From positions 1 to 51,124 of the IMG/VR virus record IMGVR_UViG_3300048851_000137: a stretch of DNA of 51,124 nucleotides. One strand, written 5' to 3'. Shown here piece by piece: positions 302-51,124 of this stretch. The position numbers and the translations under genes were made by a program. The first letter of the stretch is position 1; each line of letters starts with the position of its first letter. The notes under the pieces were generated by a model that had not been told where the DNA came from, made no database searches, and was given only the letters and a program-made list of their open reading frames with translations. Source of the DNA: a virus.

Positions 302-482
302 GTGGCCTCGGGTTACGACCCCTTCTCCGTCATCGGTAACCATCCATTATCGGGCTAAGGCTTGGCTGGCCGGCCTGTCGCCATAATCAGGCCCCTGGTT
401 GAACCGGCTTCGCTCGGCCCGATATGGCTGGTGGCCAGGCTGCTTGAGCTTCACCATCTTTATACCATTCGGGAGACGAGCC

Positions 483-764
483 GTGCCGCAGTCGTCCGAT
501 GCCAATGCCACTGAGGTCCTGATTGAGGCCATCAATACAATCAGCGCCGCTGAGGCGCTGGTTGACCACATTGACGCCGTCCATGCCGTTGGGATGCTGG
601 TGGAGCTCCGGGAAACAATCAGCGCCACTCAGGCCTTGATCGAACTCACTGACCAGCTCGCAACGGAGCCTTTGCCCGGTACACCGGACTTGGCCGATCC
701 CCACCCTGCGCCGGATGCGTTGCCGCAGATCTCTCAGGAGCCATCAGCTTCGCGCAGGCGGTAG
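483..764 (+). CDS. Small hypothetical protein, paralogue of 3278-3466
   Basis: GTG start 7 nt after GGGAG. The N-terminus VPQSS..VLIEAINTIS is shared with the 3278 ORF, and the ~140-nt upstream leader is also conserved between the two loci. Antisense frames are open too, so coding status is uncertain. Confidence 0.35.
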   Translation: MPQSSDANATEVLIEAINTISAAEALVDHIDAVHAVGMLVELRETISATQALIELTDQLATEPLPGTPDLADPHPAPDALPQISQEPSASRRR

Positions 765-777
765 AGGCACTCCGCGC

Positions 778-1506
778 CTAACCCTGCCGGATGCCAAGCA
801 GCAGCTCAAACCGGCGCCGGGTCGCCGCGTAGCACTCGCAGGAAGCCTCTTCGAGGCCACGGCGATCCGTCACGGTAATGGTGCCCCGGCCGGAGCGGAT
901 GTAGCCCATAGCTTGGAGGTGCCCGACCGCAATGGAGACGCCGGAGCGCTGAACACAGAGCATTATCGCCAGGAAGTCCTGCGTCATCGGGATGTCTTCA
1001 CCCTCTGAGCGGTCATGCGCCATCAGCAGCCACCGTGCCAGGCGTTGCTCCAGCACATGCCGGCCGTTGCAGGCGGCGGTCTGTGCCACTTCCTCGTTGA
1101 AGGCCAGGGCGTAGCGCAGCAGCAGGGTGCGAAACGTCGGGCAGTGCTCCAGCGCTTCGCGGAAGGCTCCCGCGCTGAGGCGCAGCGCAGTGCCAGAAGC
1201 CTGCACGATACTCTCGGCGGCACTGGTATCGACCCCAAAGATCAGAGGCAGCCCGGCCATGCCCTCCTGGCCTGCATGTCCGACCTCGGCCGCGCCGCCG
1301 TCGGAAAGTAACTGGAGCGTTGAGATCCATCCCGTTTCGGGGAAGTAAACGGCGGTGATGGGCTGCTCCGGCCGGTGGAGGACCTGGCGAACGGTAAGCT
1401 CAACCCGATCCAGGCGCGGCAGCAGCCCGGCCAGTTCATCAGGCGGCAAGCCGGCCAGCAGGTGGTTGCGCGTCTGAGCGGGGTGCAGCCAATACAGGTT
1501 GGCCAT
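778..1506 (-). CDS. Crp/Fnr-family transcriptional regulator, paralogue 1 of 4
   Basis: 242 aa from ATG 1506 (internal to the 290-aa track ORF; length matches the paralogues). Effector-domain motif GHAGQEGMAGLPLIFG. C-terminal Crp-type HTH QDFLAIMLCVQRSGVSIAVGHLQAMGYIRSGRGTITVTDRRGLE. Confidence 0.8.
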   Translation of the reverse strand: MANLYWLHPAQTRNHLLAGLPPDELAGLLPRLDRVELTVRQVLHRPEQPITAVYFPETGWISTLQLLSDGGAAEVGHAGQEGMAGLPLIFGVDTSAAESIVQASGTALRLSAGAFREALEHCPTFRTLLLRYALAFNEEVAQTAACNGRHVLEQRLARWLLMAHDRSEGEDIPMTQDFLAIMLCVQRSGVSIAVGHLQAMGYIRSGRGTITVTDRRGLEEASCECYAATRRRFELLLGIRQG

Positions 1507-1856
1507 GGGGCCTCCGGTCGATGGTGTCTGCGGAGCACACTCAGCGACCCGGCGGAAGGTCGCTGCGGGCGATGACCCTATGTTAACACAGGCCCTTGCC
1601 TGCTGGCGCCGCGACCTGCAGTGAGCGGCCGCTTGCGTATGAAGAGGCAAGGCTTTCTCTTATCGGGCCTGAGTTGCTCCGGCTGCCACATTAGTCCTGG
1701 TCCGGAAAGATCAAGGCAACTCGTCCGGGAGCTGAAGTCACGACCGGCAACAGAAATAATGCCCTTGCAGGTGGAACCTCTCCACGAGCAAACGGTAGGA
1801 ACACAGCCGGTGCCTCTGATGCCCAAGCAAACTTTGGATAACGGAGAACCATAGCC

Positions 1857-2111
1857 ATGGGTTTCTACTTCTTCGATTTTAACGACGGCGATGATCAGTT
1901 CACGGACGAGGTGGGGCTTGAAGCCAGCAGCGGCGAGGAAGCCCTGCGCGAGGCGGTTGCCGCTCTCAGTCGCATGGCCGGCGACTGTCAAAGTCCCGTC
2001 AACGGGCAGGTCATGCGCATGACGATCAGAGATGATGCTGGTCATTCGCTGTATCAGGTCACGAACACGATGGCCTGGACGGCTTTATCCGAGGGAGGCC
2101 CTTCAGCCTAG
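1857..2111 (+). CDS. DUF6894-like small protein
   Basis: 84 aa with GGAG about 10 nt upstream. MGFYFFDFNDGDDQFTDEVGLE..EEALREAVAAL fits the pattern I recall for DUF6894 proteins of alphaproteobacteria. Confidence 0.6.
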   Translation: MGFYFFDFNDGDDQFTDEVGLEASSGEEALREAVAALSRMAGDCQSPVNGQVMRMTIRDDAGHSLYQVTNTMAWTALSEGGPSA

Positions 2112-2245
2112 GTTCCGCTAGCGCTTGATTCAGTCGCAAGATGCAGCCTACCAAAGCTGAGGAGATTGCCGCTGCCTGTTCAGAAGCAGTCCCGAACACG
2201 CCAAGATCAGGCCCAGTCGGACAAAGGCTGGCGTGCTATCGAGGC

Positions 2246-2974
2246 CTAGCCTATCGCAACACCGAGCAAGGCCTCAAAGCGGCGCCGGACCGCGCCATAA
2301 CACTCGCAGGCGGCCCCCTCGAGCCCCTGGCGATCGGTGATCGTGATGCTGCCTCGGCCTGTACGGATATAGCCGGCAGTTTGGAAACGACCGACCGCGA
2401 TGGTGAGGCCCGGGCGCTGCACACACAGCATCATCGCCAGGAAGTCCTGGGTCATCGGGACTTCGTCCCCATCCGAGCGGTCATGGGCCATCAGCAGCCA
2501 GCGCGCCAGCCGCTGCTGCAGCACATGCCGGCCATTGCAGGCGGCGGTCTGCGCCACCTCCTCATAGAAGGCCAGGGCATAGCGCAGCAGCAGCGCCCGA
2601 AAGGCGGGGCAGCGCTCCAGCCCGTCGCGGAAGGCCTCCGCGCTCATGCGCAGGGCGGTTCCGGGGGCCTGCACCATGCCCTCGGCGGCAGTGGTGTCGG
2701 CCCCGAAGAGCAAGGGTAGCCCGAGCATGCCTTCGCGTCCGGCATGCCCGACCTCGGCCGCACCACCATCGGAGAGCAGGTTGATGATCGAGACCCATCC
2801 CGCCTCAGGGAAATGGACGCCGGTGATCGGCTCCTCCGGGCGCTGGAGAACCTGGCGCAAGGTCAGTTCGACCCGCTCCATGCGCGGTAGCAGAATGGCC
2901 AGTTCATTGGATGGCACGGCAGCCAGCAGGTGGTTCCGCGGCTGCGCAGGGTGCAGGTCAAGGATATTGGACAT
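2246..2974 (-). CDS. Crp/Fnr-family transcriptional regulator, paralogue 2 of 4
   Basis: 242 aa, MSNILDLHPAQPRNHLL.... Same architecture as 778-1506. HTH is CVQRPGLTIAVGRFQTAGYIRTGRGSITITDRQGLE. Confidence 0.8.
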   Translation of the reverse strand: MSNILDLHPAQPRNHLLAAVPSNELAILLPRMERVELTLRQVLQRPEEPITGVHFPEAGWVSIINLLSDGGAAEVGHAGREGMLGLPLLFGADTTAAEGMVQAPGTALRMSAEAFRDGLERCPAFRALLLRYALAFYEEVAQTAACNGRHVLQQRLARWLLMAHDRSDGDEVPMTQDFLAMMLCVQRPGLTIAVGRFQTAGYIRTGRGSITITDRQGLEGAACECYGAVRRRFEALLGVAIG

Positions 2975-3277
2975 GGGGGCATTCCAGTCGACGCTGTCGG
3001 CGGGAGCGCTCCACTCTCAGTCGCCTACGCCGAAAGGTCGCTGCAGAACGATCCCGTATGATAACACAGGAACGCTGCCTGCTCGGTACGCTAACGCACA
3101 CCGGAGCCAATTCGGGTATGAACAGGCACGCAGGTCATCCGTAATCGTGCTGAGGCTTCGTTTAGTGGCAGTCGCCATGATTGGGCCCTGGTTGAAGCTT
3201 TTGCGTTCGGGCCGATATGGCTGGCGGCTAGCCTGGCCATCGCAGTAGCATCTTCATCGCTCATTGGGAGGCATGCC

Positions 3278-3466
3278 GTGCCGCAGTCGTCCCACCCCAG
3301 CCCAACCCGGGTGCTGGTTGATCTCATCGACACGATCAGCACCACACCTGCACCGCGCCTTGAAGGTGTGCCGGATCCACTGGTGCTTCCTGTCCCGCCG
3401 ATTCTGACGGAGGCCGTCGATGGTCACCGGGGTTCTCTCGAAGAGCCTGAGACCCCGCCCTCATAG
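3278..3466 (+). CDS. Small hypothetical protein, paralogue of 483-764
   Basis: GTG start after GGGAGG. N-terminus VPQSSHPSPTRVLVDLIDTIS. Conserved leader shared with the 483 locus. Confidence 0.35.
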   Translation: MPQSSHPSPTRVLVDLIDTISTTPAPRLEGVPDPLVLPVPPILTEAVDGHRGSLEEPETPPS

Positions 3467-3745
3467 ATAGTAAGCCGCCATTATCGGGCCCGGCTTACCA
3501 TCTCAGCCACCTTGCCCGATTTCCCGCCGAGCGGCGCGCCTTGTCCCAGCGCCGTCGTTTGCGAGCCGCAGCCATTGCAGGCCGCAACCAACATTGCAGC
3601 TGCGCATTTTCCGGCGGGTCTTCGCCGCAGGTGAGCGTGGGGCCGGTATGTGGAAGTACGGATCTCACAGCGGACTTTGCATCGGAATGGCTGCAGGGGG
3701 CGCAGTTCGTCGGCGGCGAAGACCTTTTTGTAAGGGTTCTGCCCT

Positions 3746-4339
3746 CTAGCCCAGCAGGTGCCCTCCCCTGCCCTTCCACGCGGCCTCCAGCGCTGCCCAG
3801 GACTGGTTGCCCAGCGCCTCGAGCTTCTGCCGCACCGCCGCCGGCACCCAGCGGCCGCGCCAGTCCCGCGCTGAAGCACGCTCTTGATATTCTGAGGGTT
3901 TAGCTACCGAGTCAGTTTGGCCCTGCCTGAAATCCGGCAGGCCTGGCGGGAACGAATAGGCGTTGCTGGTGCGCATGGCCTTCCGGAGCACGTGCAGTCT
4001 GCCAGCCACCTGCACCGGCCAGCCAACGACCCGCAGGCGGGCCTGCACCTGCAACAGTCCCCAGGCTTGCAGGGTTCGCACCGCCCGCTTGACGCTGCGC
4101 AGGCTGACCGCCGCCTCACGGGCGATGAAGGCCATGCTGGGGATCAGCACCCCGGCGCCGCGCGGCGCCTTCCAGAGCAGCCAGTCGAAGACCAGGCGCG
4201 TGGTGCCGGTGAACGGCCCCTGGCTGCCCTTGCGACGGTGGGCGCGATTGATGGTGAGCATGCGACGCCAAAGGCCGCCCCGGTGCTCAGCCGAGGCCGT
4301 GCAGGATGGCGCACTTAGCGCGAAGGCATTGCGGTCCAT
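3746..4339 (-). CDS. Winged-helix/HTH DNA-binding protein, candidate plasmid-type replication initiator
   Basis: 197 aa. HTH-like segment MAFIAREAAVSLRSVKRAVRTLQAWGLLQV. Divergent from and adjacent to the parA locus. The Rep role rests on position only. Confidence 0.45.
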   Translation of the reverse strand: MDRNAFALSAPSCTASAEHRGGLWRRMLTINRAHRRKGSQGPFTGTTRLVFDWLLWKAPRGAGVLIPSMAFIAREAAVSLRSVKRAVRTLQAWGLLQVQARLRVVGWPVQVAGRLHVLRKAMRTSNAYSFPPGLPDFRQGQTDSVAKPSEYQERASARDWRGRWVPAAVRQKLEALGNQSWAALEAAWKGRGGHLLG

Positions 4340-4600
4340 ATCGGTCCCGCCCGGACGCAGTTCTCCCGCCGCAGAAAGCCTTGCGGTTTTTCAGCCCGAG
4401 CACTAAATTCGAGAGGTCATTGTTTCTCTCGGCCTGACGGGCGCCAACCCGCTAGTGCTCGCGATGTAAGGGTCGTTCCTGAGAGGGGGCGGCCTTTCTT
4501 CGTTTCTGGCCGCCGGATTGCGGGCCGGCAGTATGATGCCTGCACTGCCGCGCCTCCGCAACTAAACCATTGAAGACGCTATAAATACCTCTTCCGGCAC

Positions 4601-5928: not shown

Positions 5929-6645
5929 ATGAAGAACGCGAGTGAGATCGCCTATTGCATCGCATCAATGGAGAACGACTTCGATTTATTCGAAGGAATC
6001 GTTCGGAGTTGGCTTACTGCAGATCTTCCTCCTCCCGGGAAAGCGTCAAGGGATCAGACCTTTGGGTCCTTCTCGCGAGTACTAGATAGCCTTGAACGGA
6101 GAGTGGGGATCAAGCTTAAGCACCGGGACGAATTCGAGGAGTATCTCAAAAGCGACAAACAGGAGGATTGGCAGCGGATATTCACTGCAGCTCTGCCGGG
6201 GATACGTAAAGAGGTCCTTGATGTTGTCACCGCTGCACTTCTGGCGCTACCCGAGCCGTCGTGGCTCAATCTTTTACCGCCGCCCTTCACAGCGCAGGTT
6301 CAGTCACTATTACGCTCGGGCCATTATCTAAGCGCAGTCCGGCAAGGTTGTGACGCGGTTCGAGCGTTGATGCGTGAAAAGACAGGATTCCACGACCTGG
6401 ATGCAACTGAGCTGGTAAACAAAGCCTACGGCAAAGATGGTCAGTTCAAGCTCGCCGCTTGGGAGGGTCATTCGCTGGACAGTGTCTGGCGCGGGTACGC
6501 CGATATGCTGCGCGGAGCTATGACAGGCATCCGCAATGCCCACTACCACGGTACAGACGAGATTGATGAGGCTGAGGCGTCACGCCTTTTGGTGATCTTG
6601 GGAACTCTTTGGTTGCGCGTAGAGGGCACTACGAAGGTCGGGTAG
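5929..6645 (+). CDS. Protein with C-terminal TIGR02391/Hypoth_Ymh-like domain and an unrecognised N-terminal half
   Basis: 238 aa in an AT-richer island. The C-terminal region FTAQVQSLLRSGHYLSAVRQGCDAVRALMREKTG...LRGAMTGIRNAHYHG..EAEASRLLVILGTLWLRV fits the Ymh pattern (GHY..AV, G.RN..aH, eA...L) as I remember it. Confidence 0.6.
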   Translation: MKNASEIAYCIASMENDFDLFEGIVRSWLTADLPPPGKASRDQTFGSFSRVLDSLERRVGIKLKHRDEFEEYLKSDKQEDWQRIFTAALPGIRKEVLDVVTAALLALPEPSWLNLLPPPFTAQVQSLLRSGHYLSAVRQGCDAVRALMREKTGFHDLDATELVNKAYGKDGQFKLAAWEGHSLDSVWRGYADMLRGAMTGIRNAHYHGTDEIDEAEASRLLVILGTLWLRVEGTTKVG

Positions 6646-6773
6646 GCATTCCAGGCGCTGGTTCCGTCGGTGCCGGCACCGCGACGTTCGTTTGATCGTC
6701 AGCCATTGGTCGCCTCTAGCCCCTCCCATGTTTTACGGGTGATCACAAAAGGAGCGCGGTCAGGCAGTTGCCA

Positions 6774-7631
6774 CTACGCACCAAAAATAGCTTCGCTAAT
6801 TCGGGAGATTTCCCGCGCCTTCACAACGTAAGCAAGATTCATCCGGACATCTGTGGCAACCTTAATGCCAGCATCCTGCGGAATGTTTGTGGGGATAGGC
6901 ACGATTGTTACTATTCCATTTTCGGAAATCCGAGGCCCGCCCCAAACTATTCCAAGCAAGCAGGCGCGTTCACCGACGGTGATGGTCCCATTTGACTTAT
7001 TGGATAAATACGGCCCTCTTCCCAAGAAAAATACTGGAGAGCCTGAAGATCCTGAGAACAGGGCGGCATCCACCACGAACTCTGGCTTTCCGTTGTAGTC
7101 GATAGCTAGATGAGATGCGGTGACGCCTGCGCGGAAAAGCGGAAACCCGTGCTTCTGATCCCACTGCCCATTCGGACAGCCCACCATAACGACTTGTTCA
7201 AGAATATCACTGTTATGTATTTGCTCTTGAGTAGCAAAAACCGATTCATCCAACCAAACAACGTAAATTTTCTTGCCGGCGTTTGCCTTCTCCCAATCTA
7301 TAATAGCTTTATCAAGTGAGATTGCCGCTAAATCAACTTCTGGGTCAGGATGATAAGCGATCCCGCAGTTAATATTAACCATCAAATTGATGACCACCGG
7401 CGTTTCGGCGATAAGATCGTTTTCAATGATATGAAATGCTATGCGGAAATATGTAGCGTTAGCCACAACATGTCTATTCGTCACTAAGACCGGCAGTTTG
7501 AATTCTTTACTTTTTGACTCCAGTATAAAGCTGGAGCCAGTTCCTATCCAAGCCCTCTCACTGTTGCCGCCTTCGACTCGTTTCACAGCATACATAAGCT
7601 GTTCCGCGGTGGTTTGAGGCTTGAAAGGCAT
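6774..7631 (-). CDS. Trypsin-like (chymotrypsin-fold) serine peptidase, predicted cytoplasmic
   Basis: ATG 7631 with GGAG 9 nt upstream (the track ORF extends to GTG 7676). Catalytic motifs VLVTNRHVV (His), EVDLAAISL (Asp) and SGSSGSPVFF (Ser). No signal peptide or TM segment is visible. Confidence 0.8.
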   Translation of the reverse strand: MPFKPQTTAEQLMYAVKRVEGGNSERAWIGTGSSFILESKSKEFKLPVLVTNRHVVANATYFRIAFHIIENDLIAETPVVINLMVNINCGIAYHPDPEVDLAAISLDKAIIDWEKANAGKKIYVVWLDESVFATQEQIHNSDILEQVVMVGCPNGQWDQKHGFPLFRAGVTASHLAIDYNGKPEFVVDAALFSGSSGSPVFFLGRGPYLSNKSNGTITVGERACLLGIVWGGPRISENGIVTIVPIPTNIPQDAGIKVATDVRMNLAYVVKAREISRISEAIFGA

Positions 7632-7738
7632 GCTGCAGCTCCAGCGTTGAAGATGCAAAGTATCCCGCGCCGACACGTGCTGCGCCAGCCTTGGCCAAAA
7701 TCAACCCTCACGCCGCTGCCCGCTTGTTAGGCCATCCG

Positions 7739-8011
7739 TCACGCGCCTTCTTCTGGGAACATCGGCAACTGCCCCGCAACTTTGCAGCACGCGTTCCAGA
7801 AACGCTTCGCTGCAGTATCTTGGGAAAGCCCTGGCGCTACCCTAAGGAATGGCTCTTCACCCAATCCTATCTCAAGCCAGACCTTGCCCTCTGGGTCGCT
7901 GAAATTCAGACGCGGAGGTTTGGCTCGCGTTACCTCAAGAATGGTCCGCATCCACGGCCTGGTCTGAATCGAACGCTCGGAACTTTCTTGGTTCGTTTGA
8001 TCGTCAGGCAT
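7739..8011 (-). CDS. Hypothetical 90-aa protein between the recombinase-like gene and the protease
   Basis: ATG 8011 overlaps the upstream gene end by 8 nt. MPDDQTNQESSERSIQTRPWMRTILEV.... No recognisable motif. Confidence 0.3.
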   Translation of the reverse strand: MPDDQTNQESSERSIQTRPWMRTILEVTRAKPPRLNFSDPEGKVWLEIGLGEEPFLRVAPGLSQDTAAKRFWNACCKVAGQLPMFPEEGA

Positions 8012-8612
8012 TGCGGCCTCCAAATCGCGGGGTGCCTCGGGCGCCGAAGCTGCGGTAGAGCGTGCGGACCGCCACATTGAGTTGCGATGCGATCGCCGCG
8101 GCGGAGAGGTCGGGATTGGCCCAGGCGGCCCGCGCTTCCTGCAGCGCCTTGCCGGCCAGGGCAGGCCGCGGCCCGGCCGTGATGCCCAGCTCTGCGCGCC
8201 GGCCCCGGGCCTTGGCGGCTCTCTCCCGCTGCCCCTGGCTCTCTGCCCGTTCGGCCAGTGCGATGGCGCGCAGGGCGTCCGGATGCCAGCGCACCAGGTC
8301 GCCAGTCGCGGCGTCGCGCACCGATGCCCCGGCCGCCGTCACCTCGGTTAGGGCGCGCAGCACATCCGCCCGGGTGGCGCCCAGCCGCGCCGCGCTCTCT
8401 ACCACCAGCTCGTCACCCTCGCGCAGGGCCTTGATGGCAGCGGAGCGCGCAGGGGAGGGGTCGGCGCCGGCCTTCGGGCGCTTCGGCTGCCGGTCGATAT
8501 AGAGGGAGCCGGCGGTCAGGCTGGGCTCGGCAAGGCCGGCTGCTACCAGCGCGGCGTGCTGCTCATCCTCGCTCGCGCCGGCCTTGGTGATGCGGATGTA
8601 TCCGATCTGCAC
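8004..8612 (-). CDS. Serine recombinase (resolvase/invertase) homologue with degenerate active site
   Basis: MQIGYIRITK vs the family GYxRVSTxxQ (Thr at the nucleophile position). GDELVVESAARLGAT vs GDxLVVxxLDRLGR. C-terminal HTH AAIASQLNVAVRTLYRSF. Confidence 0.75.
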   Translation of the reverse strand: MQIGYIRITKAGASEDEQHAALVAAGLAEPSLTAGSLYIDRQPKRPKAGADPSPARSAAIKALREGDELVVESAARLGATRADVLRALTEVTAAGASVRDAATGDLVRWHPDALRAIALAERAESQGQRERAAKARGRRAELGITAGPRPALAGKALQEARAAWANPDLSAAAIASQLNVAVRTLYRSFGARGTPRFGGRNA

Positions 8613-10334: not shown

Positions 10335-11014
10335 TCATGGCCCGCACCTTGGGCCATGGCGTAAAGTGCCGCCGCATCGTCGGCTGTCCGGAACTTCCGG
10401 ATAGGCAGGCCGGGTGGCAGGTTTTGCGTCAGAAGCCGAATGAAGCGGGCATCGCGCTCACGGCTTGCGGCCCACTTCTCTGCTTCCTCCGAGGTCAGGT
10501 CGCCAATTGGGCGCCCATTGACTTGGAAGGTGTCAAGCAATGACGCCTGCGCCACGACGGCGATGGCCTCGATGCTAATGCTGGATTTGCGCGTGGGGCG
10601 GGCACCACGGTTCTGGCTGACATGACCTACTCGGCCCGCGCCCACGGCATTTCCGCTGTGCCACCTCCGCATCTCCGCCGCCAGCTCTTCCTGTCGATAA
10701 GCCTGCGCTGCCTCTGTCAAAAGGCGTTGAGCGGCCTGTGCCCTATAGGGCTGGAACATTTCCCAGAGCAGGTCAGCGTCGTTCTTTACCAGTCGGTAAA
10801 GCGCGTCTTTAGCCCCATCCCAGTTGCGAGGGGACTGCTTGATTGCTGCCATGGAAACCTCCTGCAGGCACTTGGCCTGGCGTTCGTCGGATCGCTCAAG
10901 TTCGGGCTGCGCGATTCCCTGCGGGTTGTCGAAAGCCGAGAGCAATACTGTCAGCAGACGATCCGCGACTGGTACATATCCGGCTGCAACCATTGCCTCA
11001 GCCATGACGGTCAT
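10331..11014 (-). CDS. Hypothetical early-left operon protein (227 aa)
   Basis: ATG 11014 with AGGAG 7 nt upstream. Stop overlaps the next start (ATGA at 10331-10334). Confidence 0.6.
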   Translation of the reverse strand: MTVMAEAMVAAGYVPVADRLLTVLLSAFDNPQGIAQPELERSDERQAKCLQEVSMAAIKQSPRNWDGAKDALYRLVKNDADLLWEMFQPYRAQAAQRLLTEAAQAYRQEELAAEMRRWHSGNAVGAGRVGHVSQNRGARPTRKSSISIEAIAVVAQASLLDTFQVNGRPIGDLTSEEAEKWAASRERDARFIRLLTQNLPPGLPIRKFRTADDAAALYAMAQGAGHE

Positions 11015-11034
11015 GGTCGTCTCCTGAATGGGCG

Positions 11035-11220
11035 TTAGCGCTGCGCGTTGCCGCTGATCAGCTGGGCATGTTTGCGGAGATCTTCCGCGATCTCGGCTCC
11101 TGTCGCCTGTGGCCGCTCTCTGGCCATCTTCTCGGCGGTAAGCAGCCCCTCAAGGTATGACCGCAGCGGCGGAGGGTCGCGATGCGGGCCGCCCGACGCA
11201 TCAGGGTGGGTGCTGTTCAT
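11035..11220 (-). CDS. Hypothetical early-left operon protein (61 aa)
   Basis: ATGA overlap with the upstream gene at 11217-11220. Confidence 0.5.
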   Translation of the reverse strand: MNSTHPDASGGPHRDPPPLRSYLEGLLTAEKMARERPQATGAEIAEDLRKHAQLISGNAQR

Positions 11221-11429
11221 TGGCCGGGCCTCCGAGGTGGGGTTTCATCGCCTAGGATTGCCGCGGCAATGGCCATGCGGTCCCAGGGGTTCATGGCGCG
11301 CATCGCAAGGAATGCTTGATCAAGCACCCCGCGGTAGACGGGAGCGGCACGTGCGGGCTCGTTGACCTGCCTGCACATCTGCTTCGCAAGCCGTGCTTTC
11401 ACATCGTCGGCTAAGGCCATCTTGGGCAT
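11217..11429 (-). CDS. Hypothetical early-left operon protein (70 aa)
   Basis: ATG 11429 overlaps the upstream stop (TGATG). MPKMALADDVKARLAKQMCRQV.... Confidence 0.5.
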   Translation of the reverse strand: MPKMALADDVKARLAKQMCRQVNEPARAAPVYRGVLDQAFLAMRAMNPWDRMAIAAAILGDETPPRRPGQ

Positions 11430-11938
11430 CAGCGCGCAGCCTGATGCGAGATCGTTGCCTCGGCATTGGGCCTGCGTAGCGACGCGTTGCGGCGTACACG
11501 CCGATAGCTGACGTGTGGCTCCAGCCGAAGCGATTGGGCCACGGCGGGCGTCATGCCCTTGTGGCCGCATGTGACGTCGCTGACCTGGCTTCGGCTGAGG
11601 CCATGCGCTCGCGCATACGCGGCCGGTCCTCCGGCGTCCCGCACGGCCTGATTCAGCATCACCATCGCTTCGCTGGCCGGTACCAGGGGGTCGAGACGTG
11701 CCGTCTGCGATAGTGATGGTTCGAAGCCCGGCAGCGCATCTCCGCCCAGCACCAGGCGGAAGCCGGCGGTCAAGGCTTTCACTATGGCGTTCGGTACTGG
11801 CCTAGCACTGTCGCCGACGCACCACCCCTGGCCATGACAGCGATGTAGCGTCTGTCCGGAGAGCAGGAGCAGCGCCAGCTCGGCGACCGTGGCAATCTGA
11901 GCCTGCCCGCTATCCTGGGTCATGCTGATCGTCGTCAT
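11429..11938 (-). CDS. Hypothetical protein with C-terminal HTH-like segment
   Basis: 169 aa. ATGA overlap at 11935-11938. AAYARAHGLSRSQVSDVTCGHKGMTPAVAQSL resembles phage HTH regulators. Confidence 0.55.
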   Translation of the reverse strand: MTTISMTQDSGQAQIATVAELALLLLSGQTLHRCHGQGWCVGDSARPVPNAIVKALTAGFRLVLGGDALPGFEPSLSQTARLDPLVPASEAMVMLNQAVRDAGGPAAYARAHGLSRSQVSDVTCGHKGMTPAVAQSLRLEPHVSYRRVRRNASLRRPNAEATISHQAAR

Positions 11939-13450: not shown

Positions 13451-13804
13451 TTATTTTTGTGGCGCCACTTTGTCGGGGCGGGTGCTTACCGCGATCGACG
13501 AGCCCAGGAGCGTCAAGACAGCCTCCCGTACATGCTGAGGGGCCTGTCTTAAGAGAAGGATGGCTTGGGCCTCCTCAGCCGATTCGGCGACTATCCGGCC
13601 ATCGTTGGACGGAGCACCAAGAAGCTCGTCCAGGCTCAGTCTATAGAACACCGCTAGCGCCTCCAGGTTATCCCGCCCCGGCTTCTTGGTGCCCTTCTCC
13701 CACTGGCTGACAGTAGGGCGCGAAACACCGATAGCAGCCGCAACCTCGTGTTGACCTAATTTGCGGTGTTCTCTTTCTGTTCGCAAGCGTTGTGCAATGC
13801 TCAT
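13451..13804 (-). CDS. CI-like XRE-family repressor without a peptidase (S24) domain
   Basis: 117 aa from ATG 13804. MSIAQRLRTEREHRKLGQHEVAAAIGVSRPTVSQWEKGTKKPGRDNLEALAVFYRLSLDELLG is a classic HTH_3. Divergent from the Cro-like gene. No SD upstream. Confidence 0.8.
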   Translation of the reverse strand: MSIAQRLRTEREHRKLGQHEVAAAIGVSRPTVSQWEKGTKKPGRDNLEALAVFYRLSLDELLGAPSNDGRIVAESAEEAQAILLLRQAPQHVREAVLTLLGSSIAVSTRPDKVAPQK

Positions 13805-13847
13805 CCGGCGATTGTGCGCGAAACCGATTTCTGATGGGTGCCTATAG

Positions 13848-13888
13848 GGTACCTTTCCGCTTGCGCTCTTCTGTACCCTCAGGGTACC
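13848..13888. promoter_or_regulatory. Operator cluster O-right in the cI/cro intergenic region: GGTACC (13848-13853) and TGTACCCTCAGGGTACC (13872-13888)
   Basis: The reverse complement of 13872-13888 is GGTACCCTGAGGGTACA, one mismatch from 13390-13406. Confidence 0.65.
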
Positions 13889-13897
13889 TTCGCTCCC

Positions 13898-14125
13898 ATG
13901 AGCGCCATCCAAGATGCAATTACGGTAGCCGGGGGTATGAGGCCGCTCGCCAAGCGGTTGGGCGTTAGTCATCAGACGGTGCTTAAGTGGAAGAAGCGCG
14001 TTCTCCGCATCACTGCGGAGCGCGCCATTGCTCTTGAAGGCGAGGTGGGGATCTTCCGGGGGCGTTTTCGCCCGGATCTTTGGCCGACCGAGGAAGGGCA
14101 GCCGCACTCGGAACGTGCCGCATGA
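13898..14125 (+). CDS. Cro/YdaS-like DNA-binding protein
   Basis: 75 aa from ATG 13898. AIQDAITVAGGMRPLAKRLGVSHQTVLKWKKR...ERAIALE fits YdaS/Cro-type HTH proteins. Confidence 0.7.
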   Translation: MSAIQDAITVAGGMRPLAKRLGVSHQTVLKWKKRVLRITAERAIALEGEVGIFRGRFRPDLWPTEEGQPHSERAA

Positions 14126-45461: not shown

Positions 45462-46127
45462 ATGCGGGCCTCCTCCTCCGACGCTATGACCCGTCTGCGC
45501 GACCAGATCGCGCGGATTGAACGTAACTGGGTCGACGCCGCAGTGCCGGTCCTGCCGATCGCGCCGTCGATCGACAGCACCTTGCCTGCCGGCGGCCTGG
45601 TGCTCGGCGCCCTGCACGACATCATGGCGCCCTCCGAAGCGGCCATGACCTCGGCCCTAGGCTTCTGCGCCGTGCTGCTGGCGCGCAGCACCGGCGCCGT
45701 CATCTGGATCGAGGCGGCGCCCCACGCCTATGCGCCGGGGCTTCGGCGCTTTGGTCTGGAACCGGACAGACTGATCTTCGCGCCCGCCCCTGCCCTGCCC
45801 GATGCGCTTTGGGCCATGGAGGAGAGCTTGCGCTGTGGTGCGGTCGGCGGCGCATTCCTCTTGCTCGGCAAGCGCCCCCTGGATCTGACCGCAGCGCGCC
45901 GCCTGCAGCTGGCTGCCGAGGCCGGCGGCACCATCGGGCTGATCCTGCGGTTTACCGAACCTGGGCGCAGCGTGGCGCAGACGCGATGGCGCATCAGCCC
46001 CCTGCCCTCCCCGGGCGGCGAGGCCTGCTGGCAGATCGATCTGGAGCACAGCCGGCACGGGCGACCGCAGAGCTGGCGGATGCAGTGGGATCGGGAGGCG
46101 CGGCAGCTGCTGGAGCAGGCAGATTGA
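45462..46127 (+). CDS. imuA: ImuA-like (SulA/RecA-fold, SOS mutagenesis cassette) protein, orphan
   Basis: LRDQIARIE...LPIAPSIDSTLPAGGLVLGALHDI...VIWIEAAPHAYAPGLRRFGLEPDRLIFA...AMEESLRCGAVGGAFLLL...LTAARRLQLAAEAGGTIGLILR...TRWRISPLPS matches the ImuA pattern of alphaproteobacteria as I recall it. The alternative start is ATG 45486. Confidence 0.7.
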   Translation: MRASSSDAMTRLRDQIARIERNWVDAAVPVLPIAPSIDSTLPAGGLVLGALHDIMAPSEAAMTSALGFCAVLLARSTGAVIWIEAAPHAYAPGLRRFGLEPDRLIFAPAPALPDALWAMEESLRCGAVGGAFLLLGKRPLDLTAARRLQLAAEAGGTIGLILRFTEPGRSVAQTRWRISPLPSPGGEACWQIDLEHSRHGRPQSWRMQWDREARQLLEQAD

Positions 46128-46223: not shown

Positions 46224-48644
46224 TCAAGGTGCGTGTTCCCGCGTCCGGACTTCCGACTGTAAAGAGGCTGGTTGCGGACGGCCGAAAAGGTAGCCCTGAG
46301 CCTCATTGCAGCCAACTGCCGCCAGAATCTGGCACTGCTCCTCCGTCTCCACCCCTTCTGCCGTTGTTTCCATATCCAGCGCTCTACAAAGAGCAATTAC
46401 GGATCGAACAATCGCGTCGCTTTCCTTACGCTTTCCCAAGCTCTGGACGAAGCTCTTGTCGATTTTGACCCGGTCGAATGGAAAACGCTGAAGATAACTT
46501 AGTGACGAATATCCCGTACCGAAATCGTCCAGTGCAATGCTAATGCCTAAAGTCCGGAGACGGTGCAGCATCGTAAGCGTAGCCTCGGTATCCCTGAGCA
46601 GGGCGGTCTCAGTGATTTCGAGCTCCAGTCGGCTGACGTCCAGACCCGACGCTTGAAGCGCCGATACGACGACCGCAACTAGCCCACTGCTGGTAAACTG
46701 CACCGGAGAAAGATTGACAGCGATTTTCGTGTGTCCAGGCCAAAGTGCCGCATCGACGCAGGCACGATTAAGGACCCATTCACCGAGGGGCACGATCAGG
46801 CCAGTCTCTTCTGCCAATGCGATAAAGCGATCAGGCATGATCAGGCCCTGATCAGGGTGGCGCCAGCGCAGCAGCGCTTCGTAACCTGTAATGACGTGCG
46901 TTTCGATATCGACCTTCGGCTGGTAGAAGAGCTCAAACTCGTCGGCGTCGATCGCGCGACGGAGGTCACTCAGCAGAGTGCGCCGCATCTGTGCGTGAGC
47001 ATTCATCTCGGGTTCGAAGAACCTGAAGCAGCCGCGCCCGTCTGACTTCGCGCGATATAATGCCAGATCAGCGTTCTTCAGTAATTCGCTGGTGTCGCAT
47101 CCGTCGCCCGGCGCGACGGCAATACCGATGCTGGTGCCTATGATCATGTGATGCCCCTCTATGTTGAAGGGTGCCGCGAGTGCTTCCACAAGGCGCTGGG
47201 CAAACCTTGCCGTATCGCCCGGCTGTTGGCCTAAGCCCTCCTGGAGGATGGCAAACTCATCACCGCCAAGCCTTGCGATCGTGTCCCCTGTGCGTGTTTG
47301 TGCTTGCAACCGCTCAGTAACGGCCTGCAATAGCGCATCGCCAGTTGCGTGCCCCAAGGTGTCGTTTACGTCCTTGAAGTGATCGAGGTCGAGACATAGC
47401 ACCGCGTAGGCATCGTCATTCTTTGTCCGGGTGATAGCCTGGTTGAGCCTTTTTTGGAGCAGCGTGCGGTTGGCCAGTCCGGTTAAAGCGTCATGATGGG
47501 CTAGATGCGAGATCGTCGCCTCACTACGCCGTTGCTCCTCCAGGACATTCACTGCGAGACGCGCCTTCTCCAACAAGTCGCGGTTGGCTAGATGCCGTAT
47601 ACCCAACACGACAAAGCTGATCAGAGATCCCGCAATCAGCAACAGCGCACATGCAGTAAAAACCGCCTGCCGTCGCCACAAGGCGAGTACATCGGCCTTG
47701 GTGCGGGAGACCGTCGCCGCGACGGGATAGTTTACCAGAGCCTGCGCTGCAATGATGCGGGTGTAGCCGTCGACGGCGCTGATGCCCTCTGCTGTACCGC
47801 TATCCGAGTTCGCCAATACGTCCTGGAAGATCAAACTGCCGGATGCAGCCTGTCGGCCGATTGTGGCAGCAGCCTCGGGATACCGAGCTAGCAGAACACC
47901 GTCCCGCCGCCATATGGCGATGGCACTGGCTGGAGCCAGCGCAAGGCGCGCGAGAAAAGCTTCCATATGGGCAAGGCCGATCCCTGCCCCTACGATTCCG
48001 AGGAAGCGACCGTCTGCGGCGGTGACGCGTCGCGTCAGATAGAAGTTCCAGGTGCCGGTCTGGAAATTACGTGCCGGCGGCGCGAGGTAGCTCGTTAGCT
48101 TGGGATTGTCGCGGATGGCAGCAAAATGGGGCCGGTCTGCAATTGAAAATATCGCCTGTGGCCATGCCCGCGTTGAGGCGATGGTCTGGCCGACTGCGTT
48201 GGTAAGAAACAGCGCCTCGACATCTGGTAGCGCCGCGACGCGTGCTTGAAGATCCCGATGAGTGGCGTGATCGGTTAAGCGTTCGTTGAACTGCTCCGTG
48301 CTGGCAATCCCCAGGAAGTTCACCTGATCGACCACCCCGTCTTCGAGTAGTTCGATGGATTGCAGGCTATTCTCGGTATAGCGTGCCAAGACCAAGGCCA
48401 GATTCTTGAGTTCCAGCTTGGTGTCGCCGATTGCGCGTTCGTGGAGATGCGCCAGCAAAAGGCTCGCCGCCAAGCAAGACACAGTAAGAGCGAGAGCACC
48501 CGAAAATATCAGCCGCCTGGAGCCACCAGGAAGGGTTCTTGTCCTCCTACCCTTTCGCTCGAGCTTCGCGGCTTTGAAAAGCAACCGTTTTGTTGCAGCA
48601 AGTGCCAGAGATCTAATTGCAGACGTCCGCACTTGGACCCCCAA
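46224..48644 (-). CDS. Membrane sensor diguanylate cyclase/phosphodiesterase (periplasmic Cache-like domain, GGDEF, EAL)
   Basis: Two TM segments flank a ~260-aa loop. RLGGDEFAIL (GGDEF). YEALLRW, DDFGTGYSSL and KIDKSFV (EAL). Lower GC than the phage core. Start uncertain (TTG 48644 or GTG 48632). Confidence 0.88.
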   Translation of the reverse strand: MGVQVRTSAIRSLALAATKRLLFKAAKLERKGRRTRTLPGGSRRLIFSGALALTVSCLAASLLLAHLHERAIGDTKLELKNLALVLARYTENSLQSIELLEDGVVDQVNFLGIASTEQFNERLTDHATHRDLQARVAALPDVEALFLTNAVGQTIASTRAWPQAIFSIADRPHFAAIRDNPKLTSYLAPPARNFQTGTWNFYLTRRVTAADGRFLGIVGAGIGLAHMEAFLARLALAPASAIAIWRRDGVLLARYPEAAATIGRQAASGSLIFQDVLANSDSGTAEGISAVDGYTRIIAAQALVNYPVAATVSRTKADVLALWRRQAVFTACALLLIAGSLISFVVLGIRHLANRDLLEKARLAVNVLEEQRRSEATISHLAHHDALTGLANRTLLQKRLNQAITRTKNDDAYAVLCLDLDHFKDVNDTLGHATGDALLQAVTERLQAQTRTGDTIARLGGDEFAILQEGLGQQPGDTARFAQRLVEALAAPFNIEGHHMIIGTSIGIAVAPGDGCDTSELLKNADLALYRAKSDGRGCFRFFEPEMNAHAQMRRTLLSDLRRAIDADEFELFYQPKVDIETHVITGYEALLRWRHPDQGLIMPDRFIALAEETGLIVPLGEWVLNRACVDAALWPGHTKIAVNLSPVQFTSSGLVAVVVSALQASGLDVSRLELEITETALLRDTEATLTMLHRLRTLGISIALDDFGTGYSSLSYLQRFPFDRVKIDKSFVQSLGKRKESDAIVRSVIALCRALDMETTAEGVETEEQCQILAAVGCNEAQGYLFGRPQPASLQSEVRTREHAP

Positions 48645-49040: not shown

Positions 49041-49775
49041 TCAAGGCGGGGATAATCCCTCGCCCGTCGCAATACCCAGCGGCACCTCAAAGCGGCGGCG
49101 GGCCAGCGCGTAGCATTCGCAGGCGGCGTTCTCGAGCCCCTGGCGGTCCGTGATGGTGATGGTGCCCCGTCCAGTGCGGATATGGCCACCCTGCTGCAGC
49201 CGGCCCAAGGCGATGCTGGCGCCAGGACGGTGGACGCAAAGCATCATAGCCAGGATGTCATGGGTTATCGGCACATCATCGCTCTCCGCGCGATCATGTG
49301 CCATCAGGAGCCAGCGGGCCAGGCGCCGTTCCAGCACATGCCGGCCATTGCAGACGGCGGTCTGCGCGACCTCCTCGTTGACGGCCAGGGCATAGCGTAG
49401 CAGCAGGGCACGAAGGCTGGGACAGCGCTCCAGCGCATTGCGGAACGCCTCCGCGTTCATCCGCAGCGCGGTGCCCGGACCCTGCACGAGGCCCTCGGTC
49501 GAGCTGATATCCCCACCAAAGAGCAGGGGCAGGCCGATCATGCCCTCCTGACCGGCATGCCCGACCTCGGCCGTGCCACCATCCGCGAGCAGGTGGATCA
49601 GCGAGACCCACCCACTCTCGGGGAAATACACGGCGGTGATCGGCTGCTCTGCTGGTTGGAGAACCTGGCGAAAAGTAAGCTCAACCCGCTCCATCTGCGG
49701 CAGCAGCATGCTCAGCTCAGCAGGCGGCAAACTGGCCAGCAGGTGACTATGGTGCAGGACTTGCAGGTTGGCCAT
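49041..49775 (-). CDS. Crp/Fnr-family transcriptional regulator, paralogue 3 of 4
   Basis: 244 aa from ATG 49775 (MANLQVLHH...). HTH is CVHRPGASIALGRLQQGGHIRTGRGTITITDRQGLE. Confidence 0.8.
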   Translation of the reverse strand: MANLQVLHHSHLLASLPPAELSMLLPQMERVELTFRQVLQPAEQPITAVYFPESGWVSLIHLLADGGTAEVGHAGQEGMIGLPLLFGGDISSTEGLVQGPGTALRMNAEAFRNALERCPSLRALLLRYALAVNEEVAQTAVCNGRHVLERRLARWLLMAHDRAESDDVPITHDILAMMLCVHRPGASIALGRLQQGGHIRTGRGTITITDRQGLENAACECYALARRRFEVPLGIATGEGLSPP

Positions 49776-50004
49776 GGGGCCTCCCGGTCGACGGTGTCGG
49801 CGGGAGTACCCCACTCTCTGTCGCCTGCGCCGGAAGGTCGCTGCAGGCGATCCTGCCTGTTAACAGAGGGCCAATGCCTGCTCGGTACGTTATCGTACGC
49901 CGGAGGCGGTTCGGGTATGAATAGGCACGTAGGTCCACGAATTATCGGCCCGTCCCCCACAGGTCGGCCTTTGCCTTACGCGTTTCCGAATTGCGGCTTA
50001 TCGC

Positions 50005-50733
50005 TTAGCCCTTCGCAATACCGAGCAGGGTCTCAAAGCGGCGCCGGACCGTGCCGTAGCACTCGCAGGTGGCCTCCTCGAGCCCCTGGCGATCGGTGAT
50101 CGTGATGCTGCCTCGGTTCGCGCGGATATGACCCGCCTTCTGGAAATGCCCGACGGCGATGGTGACGCCGGAGCGCTGGACACACAGCATCATCGCCAGG
50201 AATTCCTGGGTCATCGGGACTTCGTCCCCATCCGCGCGGTCATGCGCCATCAGCAGCCAGCGCGCCAGCCGCTGCTGCAGCACATGCCGGCCGTTGCAGG
50301 CGGCGGTCTGCGCCACCTCCTCATTGAAGGCCAGGGCATAGCGCAGCAGCAGTGCCTGGAAATCCGGGCAGCGCTCCAGCCCATAACGGAAAGCCTCCGC
50401 GCTCATGCGCAGGGCGGTTCCCGGGGCCTGCACCAAGCCTTCGGACGTTGCCGTATCCACCCCAAAGAGCAAGGGGAGCCCCAGCATACCCTCTCTGCCG
50501 GCATGCCCAACCTCGGCCGCGCCACCATCGGCGAGCAGGTTGATGATCGAGACCCATCCCGCCTCCGGGAAATGGACGCTGGTGATCGGCTGTTCCGGGC
50601 GCTGAAGAACCTGCCGCAAGGTCAGTTCGACCCGCTCCATGCGCGGTAGCAGAATGGCCAGTTCACGGGATGGCAAGGCAGCCAGCAGGAGGTTGCTCGG
50701 CTGTGCAGGGTGCAGATCAAGGACATTGGACAT
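50005..50733 (-). CDS. Crp/Fnr-family transcriptional regulator, paralogue 4 of 4
   Basis: 242 aa from ATG 50733 (MSNVLDLHPAQ..., same N-terminus as paralogue 2). HTH is CVQRSGVTIAVGHFQKAGHIRANRGSITITDRQGLE. Confidence 0.8.
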   Translation of the reverse strand: MSNVLDLHPAQPSNLLLAALPSRELAILLPRMERVELTLRQVLQRPEQPITSVHFPEAGWVSIINLLADGGAAEVGHAGREGMLGLPLLFGVDTATSEGLVQAPGTALRMSAEAFRYGLERCPDFQALLLRYALAFNEEVAQTAACNGRHVLQQRLARWLLMAHDRADGDEVPMTQEFLAMMLCVQRSGVTIAVGHFQKAGHIRANRGSITITDRQGLEEATCECYGTVRRRFETLLGIAKG

Positions 50734-50971
50734 GGGGAGCATTCCAGTCGACGGTGTCGGCGGGAGCGCTCTACTCTCAGTCGCCTGCGCCGGATTGGTC
50801 GCTGCAAGCGATCCTGCCTGTTAACACAGGGCCAATGCCTGCTCGGTACGTTACCGTACGCCCGAGGCAGTTCGGGTATGAACAGGCACGCAGGCGCCCC
50901 CTTATCGGGCCCAGTATAGCTTTGTGGGTGCATGCCTGATTTGGCTTCTGCCTCAGGCACACAGCGAGCTG

Positions 50972-51124
50972 TCAGTGATGCGTCCGAGAATAGGTGGAGG
51001 GACGCCCTACCTTTGCGGCTGAATGCAATTCCGCTTCTTCAAAACGGATGGCGGCTGCCCGATAGACGGCTGCCAACTTTGAATAGGCCTCTCGGCATGC
51101 GATGGATGCCGGTACTCCAGCTTC
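50972..51124 (-). CDS. C-terminal part of the junction-spanning 91-aa hypothetical ORF (51052-51124 duplicates 1-73)
   Basis: Manual translation continues ...AAIRFEEAELHSAAKVGRPSTYSRTHH, with TGA stop at 50974-50972. Confidence 0.4.
   Translation of the reverse strand, partial: EAGVPASIACREAYSKLAAVYRAAAIRFEEAELHSAAKVGRPSTYSRTHH
51052..51124. repeat. Terminal overlap copy 2 (identical to 1-73)
   Basis: Same 73-nt string as positions 1-73. Confidence 0.95.

Follow-up and report, generated by a model that had tools for sequence, protein, structure and literature searches.

Why would a phage carry four transcription regulators of a single family, and did it evolve them itself or take them from its host? 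The question is raised by IMG/VR virus record IMGVR_UViG_3300048851_000137, whose 51,124 nucleotides were analyzed at full length and are called the window here. Four minus-strand genes for Crp/Fnr-type regulators are found in the window, designated A (778..1506; 242 amino acids), B (2246..2974; 242 amino acids), C (49041..49775; 244 amino acids) and D (50005..50733; 242 amino acids). To our knowledge, temperate phages almost never include a global-regulator family such as Crp/Fnr in their cargo. The four genes are probably host-derived moron or lysogenic-conversion cargo of a circular temperate phage, arranged as self-contained units beside a GGDEF-EAL enzyme. A syntenic block on another contig and tandem arrays in bacteria both point to host cargo, and not to sensors that evolved in the phage.

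The genes, their phage and their origin

A preliminary description of the sequence had placed four Crp/Fnr genes on the minus strand at these positions, and the open reading frame (ORF) listing and Pfam agree with it. Searches of the window with tblastn find exactly four Crp copies and no fragments. All four match HTH_Crp_2 (PF13545) at 51-58 bits, relative to a cut-off of 27 (E 1e-13 to 1e-15). Copies A, B and C match cNMP_binding (PF00027) at 31-36 bits, relative to a cut-off of 27.5, and D falls just under it at 26.6 bits. The four genes are therefore Crp/Fnr-fold regulators. Most pairs of the proteins are 71-74% identical. The closest pair, B and D, had been put at about 85% by eye and is 86.8% identical, and C is the furthest of the four from the family consensus.

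The last 73 nucleotides of the window (51052..51124, no strand assigned) are an exact copy of positions 1-73, which is the assembly overlap of a circular molecule of 51,051 bp. Structural genes include those for a lambda GpA-type large terminase, a portal, a head protease, a major head protein and a tape measure, and the window also encodes a GH108 endolysin, a DnaB helicase and a CI-like helix-turn-helix (HTH) repressor (13451-14107). The element is a temperate tailed phage that is siphovirus-like. Plasmid-type genes are present as well, namely ParA and a small serine recombinase or resolvase (8004-8612). The gene beside ParA has a weak GntR-type HTH match below the Pfam cut-off, and is called rep-like by its position alone. 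No tyrosine integrase is found among the ORFs scanned, which are a subset of those in the window. With structural and lysis genes, ParA, a resolvase and the circular overlap all seen, the phage is probably maintained as a plasmid, that is, as a phage-plasmid.

The large terminase has its nearest relatives on metagenome contigs (72-74% identity) and is about 60% identical to those of prophages of Roseomonas and Neoroseomonas. The ParA DNA is 75% identical to that of a Roseomonas marmotae plasmid. These relatives make a member of the Acetobacteraceae, within the Roseomonas group, the most likely host.

The Crp genes are part of a block of about 7.5 kb on the minus strand, with the lysis module on one side and the rep/par module on the other. 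The order within the block is a dCache-GGDEF-EAL gene, C, D, the junction, A, a DUF6894 gene on the opposite strand, and B. Because the molecule is circular, the four Crp genes are neighbors across the junction.

A counterpart of this block occurs on L109, a 44.7-kb contig of Joint Genome Institute (JGI) sample 3300048856. L109 carries a Crp gene whose protein is 93% identical to D, then a DUF6894 gene, a second Crp gene and a PAS-kinase-receiver gene. Its other neighbors are transporters, a tannase and a type III polyketide synthase, and no phage gene is present in the 19.6 kb read. Window positions 2243-3493 are collinear with L109 at 90.6% DNA identity, and positions 792-2099 at 87.3%. The small DUF6894 protein encoded between A and B (1857..2111, plus strand) is syntenic with the DUF6894 protein between the two L109 Crp genes. 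Copy D is 91.6% identical in DNA to the first L109 Crp gene, which is the same gene that the B block aligns with. A bacterial genome is the most likely source from which the B-DUF6894-A block was captured. B and D appear to be two descendants of one captured gene (synonymous divergence, dS, 0.29), and C appears to be older or to come from elsewhere, its best outside match being 79% identical.

The segment upstream of the B leader (3183..3493, minus strand) also is collinear with L109, and is partly repeated at 341..548 (minus strand), about 500 nucleotides upstream of the D leader across the junction. The repeat (341-548 and 3183-3343) covers about 160 nucleotides at 72-79% identity, and the same sequence is found ahead of the leader in L109 (8527-8734). 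The segment at 341-548 is probably a remnant of a duplicated unit. On L109 itself, the A-like copy (10712-11435) has a frameshift near codon 115 and a C-terminal half unlike that of A; this mosaic copy is either a pseudogene or an assembly error.

Relatives of the four genes are widespread in bacteria. The clade is very large, with more than 6,600 matches among 8,000 candidates scored, and its members include genes on Roseomonas, Belnapia and Rubritepida chromosomes at 60-65% identity. It is also found at 584 places on 351 plasmid or chromid records, mostly of Rhizobium, Sinorhizobium, Agrobacterium and Burkholderia. A Roseomonas metagenome-assembled genome (MAG) has three tandem copies beside an extracytoplasmic function (ECF) sigma gene, near rpoD, and tandem pairs occur at 9 of 81 metagenome loci. 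Arrays of this kind on host chromosomes are what the preliminary description named as evidence against a phage-specific family, and with the L109 block, the triple and the tandem pairs they are largely what is found. Two further contigs come from the sample that contains L109: a chromosomal one of 536 kb, on which one homologue occurs at 74% identity, and a phage contig in IMG/VR, whose ParA shares 87% identity with that of the window. An 11-kb JGI contig has a D-like copy (P0001, 90%) together with an A-like copy (P0010, 89%), so at least this pair is shared with other elements or genomes.

Phages related to this one do without the Crp genes. Two ParA relatives have no Crp gene in the stretches compared, and none of the phage relatives identified through the endolysin or through a 221-amino-acid protein (45462-46127) carries Crp genes. 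In L083, a phage relative with a ParA identity of 87%, the Crp slot is occupied by a 910-amino-acid PAS-kinase-receiver gene (1222-3954). This gene has 66-69% DNA identity to the kinase gene that follows the Crp pair on L109 (11975-14557), which suggests that different phages captured or kept different parts of a single bacterial island. In the viral contig L097, a single internal homologue follows tail genes and a GH108 endolysin, with integrases after it, which is the same type of slot. Because relatives lack Crp genes and L083 has a kinase in their place, the slot between the lysis and rep/par modules is a variable cargo site.

The preliminary description considered such regulators unusual on a phage, and this holds. 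The Crp copies have no tblastn match (E<=1e-3) in 50,697 reference phage records, and a broad profile finds 19 loci in 2.9 million IMG/VR contigs. These loci are 31-61% identical, are single copies except for one pair, and in several cases are located at contig ends. Narrow-pattern scans of IMG/VR gave no loci, so the broad family alignment was needed, and a single narrow-pattern scan of genome contigs gave one locus only. In neither collection is there a phage with four copies besides the window. A literature search on phage-borne Crp/Fnr arrays or DUF6894 found nothing, "Crp/Fnr" not being usable as a search term.

Divergence and fold of the copies

The preliminary description held that differences among the copies are concentrated in the putative ligand pocket and in the recognition helix. 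Among 238 ungapped aligned columns, 93 are variable. Variability peaks locally in the pocket stretch (7 of 10 columns variable) and in the recognition helix (8 of 13), as it does at the N-terminus and in residues 165-175, but permutation tests reveal no significant clustering in the stretch or the helix (p 0.59 and 0.20), and clustered diversification at either place was rejected. Instead, the columns that vary among the paralogues are those that vary across the family (Mann-Whitney p 2e-12). The ratio of nonsynonymous to synonymous divergence (dN/dS) is 0.22-0.27 for every pair, and dS ranges from 0.29 (B and D) to 0.76. Variation is thus fairly even and follows the sites that vary family-wide, which is largely the pattern that the preliminary description had said would contradict it.

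Residues 92-97 are hypervariable across the family and are flanked by the invariant G91/D93 and E98. The recognition helix is nearly invariant in the family (R187, G189, V190, T191, A193 and Q198). In the phage copies it has conservative substitutions only, at positions 190, 191, 194 and 200, and C deviates most.

Part of the divergence of D appears to have been acquired in one piece. Apart from codons 82-102, D and its L109 orthologue have a DNA identity of 93-100%. Within these codons, synonymous divergence (pS) is 0.65, versus 0.15 elsewhere, and the encoded patch is identical in protein to P0123, which is itself only 80% identical to D overall. Because synonymous divergence is raised, codons 82-102 mark a gene-conversion tract and not selection on point mutations. 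Similarly, the protein P0003 consists of a D-like sensor half and a C-like DNA-binding half, and the D promoter is closest to that of C (93%), whereas the D 5' untranslated region (UTR) and coding region are closest to those of B. The mosaic nature of D and P0003 implies that diversity in this Crp family is shuffled among paralogues. The copies are under purifying selection and partly mosaic through gene conversion, and paralogues evolve by swapping patches and domains instead of by point mutation.

These observations bear on an alternative explanation, in which the four proteins are diversified sensors that evolved in the phage to detect signals of the host or its defenses and to steer the choice between lysis and lysogeny, or are immunity or decoy factors that act, for example, by poisoning mixed dimers. 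A temperate phage does carry the genes, which have diverged into four copies, and the family is very rare in phages. Also, when the four copies are compared with P0013, a chromosomal homologue, the core of the dimer helix (residues 128-150) has only two variable positions, and this near-invariance makes mixed dimers plausible. The divergence has the wrong character, however, because it is unclustered, follows family-wide variable sites and is under purifying selection, and the "pocket" difference of D lies in the conversion tract. Moreover, chromosomal arrays exist, and the block is present at 87-91% DNA identity on a contig without phage genes in the part read. The leader motifs described below are neither near the CI-like switch nor elsewhere in the phage, and the phage relatives live without Crp genes. 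PADLOC gives no match for A and D (the only Crp copies submitted), for the DUF6894 protein or for the GGDEF-EAL protein. We therefore consider this explanation unlikely, and the roles that the preliminary description proposed in lysogeny, immunity or as decoys are without support from the motifs or from PADLOC.

The AlphaFold2 model has a predicted local distance difference test score of 92 and a predicted template modeling (TM) score of 0.87, and an N-terminal beta-barrel is visible. Foldseek aligns it with Mycobacterium tuberculosis CRP and with GlxR (TM-score 0.74-0.80, E 5e-14) at about 20% identity. No close solved structure is found by sequence, the best hidden Markov model (HMM) E-value being 4e-8. 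An hhalign comparison with Escherichia coli CRP covered the C-terminal half only, and residues were mapped on GlxR instead. In the HMM alignment to this cyclic AMP (cAMP)-binding protein, the position of the phosphate-binding Arg is S, T, S and A at residue 95 in the four copies, and that of the cassette Glu is Leu86 (95% Leu across the family). Both residues that define the cAMP-binding CRP/GlxR subfamily (E72 and R82 in E. coli CRP) are therefore replaced, which supports the earlier suggestion that the ligand is probably not cAMP.

The proteins also do not conform to other known subfamilies. The first cysteine is at residue 122 or later in all four copies, so the proteins do not resemble the [4Fe-4S]-containing FNR subfamily. 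The recognition helix reads R-[SP]-G-[VLA]-[ST]-I-A and not the E--SR of FNR/FixK, and at the class II position the sole palindrome is GT(A/G)CG-N4-CGTAC and not TTGAT-N4-ATCAA. The FtrB equivalog model (NCBIfam NF006901) scores 21-27 bits, relative to a cut-off of 211. Residues that are invariant in the family at 34-90% identity include C146, N147, H150, R158, W159, R187 (the equivalent of CRP R180), C223, E224 and C225, and all family invariants are kept in the phage copies. An extra C-terminal helix (residues 224-237) follows the wing, with C223 and C225 at its start in a CxC arrangement, and C146 and H150 are found at the hinge that follows the dimer helix. As a guess, C146, H150, C223 and C225 (D numbering) might together make up a metal or redox site of the Cys3His type at the hinge.

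Alternately, the paralogues might respond to cyclic di-GMP (c-di-GMP), like Clp and Bcam1349, and together with the GGDEF-EAL enzyme switch the lysogen between motile and biofilm states. This enzyme, an 806-amino-acid dCache-GGDEF-EAL membrane protein (46224..48644, minus strand), is encoded directly downstream of C on the same strand and in the same cargo block, and its GGDEF, EAL and DDFGTG motifs are intact. Xanthomonas Clp is a structural neighbor (TM-score 0.64-0.73), yet in the fold search many other Crp proteins ranked above it. A distant locus, L037, has the box described below and a nearby EAL gene; however, no GGDEF or EAL gene adjoins the homologue in L109, L089, L084 or L087, and only 1 of 81 metagenome loci has one. 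On balance, such a circuit seems improbable. A tblastn search with the dCache-GGDEF-EAL protein gives 173 "phage" records, many of which are unannotated fragments or mislabeled bacterial contigs.

The genes might also be passengers, that is, a recent host fragment that is functionless for the phage and too young to have decayed. This would explain the high DNA identity to L109, and it fits with the frameshifted A-like copy on L109 and with phage relatives that manage without Crp genes. It is difficult to reconcile with four ORFs that are intact despite dS of 0.29-0.76 and that have dN/dS of about 0.25, the B-D pair included. Family-invariant residues are kept, promoters and UTRs are preserved in every copy, and four copies cost about 4 kb in a genome limited by its capsid. 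Quite a low probability is therefore assigned to this explanation.

Promoters, boxes and the 5' untranslated region

Each copy is preceded by a conserved leader, as the preliminary description had stated. Conservation extends over about 180 nucleotides upstream of the start codon (62-83% pairwise identity), and drops to 13-35% further upstream. The sequence TGTTAACA occurs three times in the window, where 0.07 occurrences are expected, and exclusively in the leaders of A (1581..1588), C (49858..49865) and D (50819..50826). The B leader has a one-base variant, which reads TGATAACA on the plus strand (3059..3066). On the minus strand, from which the genes are read, these -10 regions are TG-T-TAACAT in A, TG-T-TATCAT in B and TG-T-TAACAG in C, where the element is read as an extended -10 located 6 nucleotides before a hairpin arm, and the hexamer of D is TAACAG. 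TG-n precedes the hexamer in the phage copies. Of 17 homologous leaders, nearly all have a TA-rich hexamer on the upstream side of the hairpin arm, at a distance of 6-7 nucleotides, as TAACAT (A), TATCAT (B), TAACAG (C and D), TAACCT, TATAGT, TATGCT, TATGAT and others. The best reading of TGTTAACA is as an extended -10 promoter element of sigma-70 type (TGnTAACAT-like), with a predicted transcription start at the hairpin.

Two other candidates were rejected, the first of them as the main reading. A Crp-type operator at TGTTAACA is inconsistent with the chromosomal homologues, which have the non-palindromic TATAGT, TATGCT and TATGAT at this place, a fixed 6-7 nucleotides from the hairpin. An EcfG-type promoter (GGAAC-N16-17-CGTT), prompted by the ECF sigma gene that adjoins the L084 homologue, is not conserved in the leaders, in which GAAC and CGT are 19-21 nucleotides apart.

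A second motif, GTACG-N4-CGTAC, is found on the minus strand in the leaders of C (49885..49898) and D (50846..50859). B has a variant with one mismatch, GTGCG-TTAG-CGTAC (3086..3099, minus strand), whose half-sites GTGCG and CGTAC are those of L109, L089 and L090 and whose spacer differs. The window has no further matches (0.46 expected). The preliminary description was thus correct in reporting TGTTAACA or its variant in all leaders and boxes in C and D, and overlooked the box of B. In B, C and D, 22 nucleotides separate the box from the -10 hexamer downstream of it, and in L109, L089, L084 and L090 the distance is 21-24 nucleotides. It is retained in L089, L084 and L090 amid diverged flanks. 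Measured from the predicted start, the center of GT(A/G)CG-N4-CGTAC is at about -41.5, which would be the position of a class II Crp/Fnr activator.

At L037, which has a distant homologue (37% identity), GTACG-GTAT-CGTAC is located 65 nucleotides before the start. The boxes at this locus are at 3285-3298 and 4435-4448, the second being downstream, and an EAL-domain gene is present at the contig end. Across all loci, about 8 boxes are observed and 2.5 are expected, roughly threefold over a rough chance estimate.

The last 82 or so nucleotides of the leader correspond to the 5' UTR, and are conserved before homologues in Roseomonas mucosa, in Roseomonas MAGs and in L089. In the RNAalifold prediction, the UTR begins with an 8-bp hairpin and also has a helix in which CUCCCG pairs with the Shine-Dalgarno (SD) sequence CGGGAG and encloses a small CGAC/GUCG hairpin. 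A covariance model built from eight sequences matches the minus strand before A (1503..1576, 60.8 bits), B (2973..3055, 83.3 bits), C (49773..49854, 96.6 bits) and D (50733..50815, 88.7 bits). The C element comprises hairpin 1 and a helix that sequesters the ribosome-binding site (RBS), and has a fold z-score of -4.4. In A, the first hairpin is in a shifted register, CAGCGACC/GGUCGCUG. The model also matches directly before the start codon of homologues in L109 (both genes), L089, L090, L030, L098, L095, L091 and L100, and matches Azospirillum brasilense p1 and Skermanella rosea pSR-2, with protein identity down to 35%.

Covariation statistics were calculated on 19 sequences. Of the cells in this alignment, 87.9% are paired, and compensatory changes are seen in 13 of the 18 pairs. 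The score for covariation reaches 0.398, versus 0.231 in shuffled alignments (0 of 500 reach the observed score) and at most 0.127 in slid controls. Conserved pairing, compensatory changes and a fixed position before the start codon, in an alignment fitted to the model, characterize a structured cis-regulatory 5' UTR. G-U pairs are frequent in the stems, which argues that the structure is formed by RNA of the gene strand. Rfam has no match in the whole window at the gathering score, and at E<=1 gives only matches at the level of chance. Weak matches to the UTR model (28 and 32 bits) that are away from the query Crp homologue occur in L030 (2480-2538, minus strand) and L108 (15386-15469, plus strand); these may precede other genes or be due to chance.

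It is very unlikely that the leader repeats instead represent DNA-level sites, such as recombination sites, cassette ends or operators of an unrelated repressor. In favor of such sites, the leader is rich in inverted repeats, the units were duplicated and exchanged, and positions 8004-8612 encode a small serine recombinase. However, conservation spans exactly the stretch from promoter to start codon and is shared with single-copy chromosomal genes at 35-74% protein identity. In addition, the stems change with their pairing kept, often by way of G-U pairs, which on the opposite strand would become C-A mismatches, and no transposase or integron integrase is nearby.

A model for the cargo and its relation to known systems

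The origin of the four genes as host-derived cargo is well supported, with capture most likely. A Crp-DUF6894-Crp segment was probably captured into the slot between the lysis and rep/par modules. Whole transcription units were then duplicated until four copies were present, and the paralogues later underwent gene conversion with one another. In the lysogen, the Crp genes would be transcribed from their own promoters, opposite in direction to the phage late genes. The proteins would dimerize, plausibly also as mixed dimers, and the dimers could bind the -41.5 box as class II activators, resulting in positive auto- and cross-regulation of B, C and D. Copy A, whose promoter has no -41.5 box, would be controlled separately. 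The proteins would also act at host promoters that the chromosomal homologues serve, and with the c-di-GMP enzyme would shift the physiology of the host. The 5' UTR might add post-transcriptional control, by stabilizing the mRNA through its 5'-terminal hairpin, by gating the RBS, or both.

Several points weigh against parts of this model. A consensus sigma-70 scan, which requires a -35 match, calls no promoter in any leader, the -35 matches being poor, and the -10 and -41.5 positions are assigned by spacing and conservation alone. The box is lacking in A, in the L109 counterpart of A, and in the chromosomal homologues of R. mucosa, L002 and L015, and the protein that binds it may be a regulator other than the Crp copies. 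Fitting the UTR alignment to the model inflates the covariation counts somewhat, and single-sequence folds of B and of the first L109 leader (L109a) favor other pairings. L109, of which 19.6 of 44.7 kb was seen, could itself be a mobile element, and transfer from bacterium to phage is a direction that we infer. Finally, contigs of 11, 43, 50, 73 and 90 kb with relatives at 78-90% are outside the comparison.

A bolder form of the model is possible, although the odds are clearly against it. The genes would constitute a phage-borne self-activating module that senses through the Cys3His hinge and not through the barrel pocket, that uses a new box, GT(A/G)CG-N4-CGTAC, and that is controlled by an undescribed 5' UTR riboregulator that is widely distributed in the Alphaproteobacteria. 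Homodimers and heterodimers, including those with host copies, would then take over the host regulon during lysogeny.

Other genes of the window and of the homologous loci add context. Positions 5929-7676 are an island of low G+C content (0.53, versus about 0.65). In this island, a 300-amino-acid trypsin-like protein (6774-7676, minus strand) matches the PADLOC candidate defense family PDC-S45 (E 1e-76), and a Hypoth_Ymh/HEPN-like protein (5929-6645) adjoins it. The two genes are a probable phage-borne defense pair, to judge from these matches. In L084 (9033-12864), from a Roseomonas MAG, the homologue is beside an EcfG/PhyR-type ECF sigma gene, which is followed by two further Crp-like genes. 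In L087 (6605-8720), from R. mucosa, the homologue is beside a divergent PAS-HWE histidine kinase. These neighbors give a weak hint of a link to the alphaproteobacterial general stress response.

Among known systems, the closest in structure is the Crp/Fnr superfamily (CRP, GlxR/Mtb-CRP, FNR, FixK, Dnr), with which the window proteins share a beta-barrel sensor, a long dimer helix and a C-terminal winged HTH. In contrast to these proteins, they have a helix of the form R-P/S-G-V-T/S-I-A in place of RE--GR or E--SR, are only about 20% identical to any solved structure, have both the cassette Glu and Arg replaced, lack N-terminal cysteines, and possess the extra C-terminal helix, the invariant CxC, C146 and H150. 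The candidate site resembles FNR/FixK boxes in its 5-N4-5 geometry, but its sequence, GT(A/G)CG-N4-CGTAC, differs from both TTGAT-N4-ATCAA and TGTGA-N6-TCACA. The comparison also exposes a large uncharacterized Crp/Fnr clade with an invariant Cys3His set and a candidate class II box, features that are apparently undescribed.

Crp/Fnr cascades in which the family box is near -41.5 in the promoter of another family member include Anr to dnr in Pseudomonas, and FixK2 to fixK1 and nnrR in Bradyrhizobium. As in these cascades, a palindrome at the class II position precedes Crp/Fnr genes in the window, and the paralogues could cross-regulate one another. Here, however, the copies are on a phage, three of the four have the candidate box, and the transcription start is predicted from sequence.

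Temperate phages carry cargo that alters the behavior of their hosts, and the multi-copy, prophage-borne Pch (PerC-like) regulators of enterohemorrhagic E. coli (EHEC) are an example of lysogenic conversion by regulators. Like phage morons and Pch, the window genes would encode host-acting transcription factors and be self-transcribed, and they are cargo near the end of the late region that comprises several paralogues. Whereas each EHEC prophage has one Pch gene, the four copies here are on one genome, and they belong to a chromosomal Crp/Fnr clade and have its native promoter and UTR. Their origin as host cargo is more ordinary than first proposed, yet the cargo is of a rare type. Roseomonas-like bacteria include opportunistic pathogens and skin commensals, and four Crp copies and a c-di-GMP enzyme on one phage are a clear candidate for regulatory lysogenic conversion in this group.

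The 5' UTR resembles ROSE and fourU thermometers and riboswitch platforms in its length of about 80 nucleotides, its anti-SD/SD helix and its compensatory changes. It differs from these elements in having no Rfam match and in being tied to one regulator clade instead of to heat-shock genes. This covariation-supported element is absent from Rfam and apparently undescribed, and is present in the cultivable organisms A. brasilense and R. mucosa.

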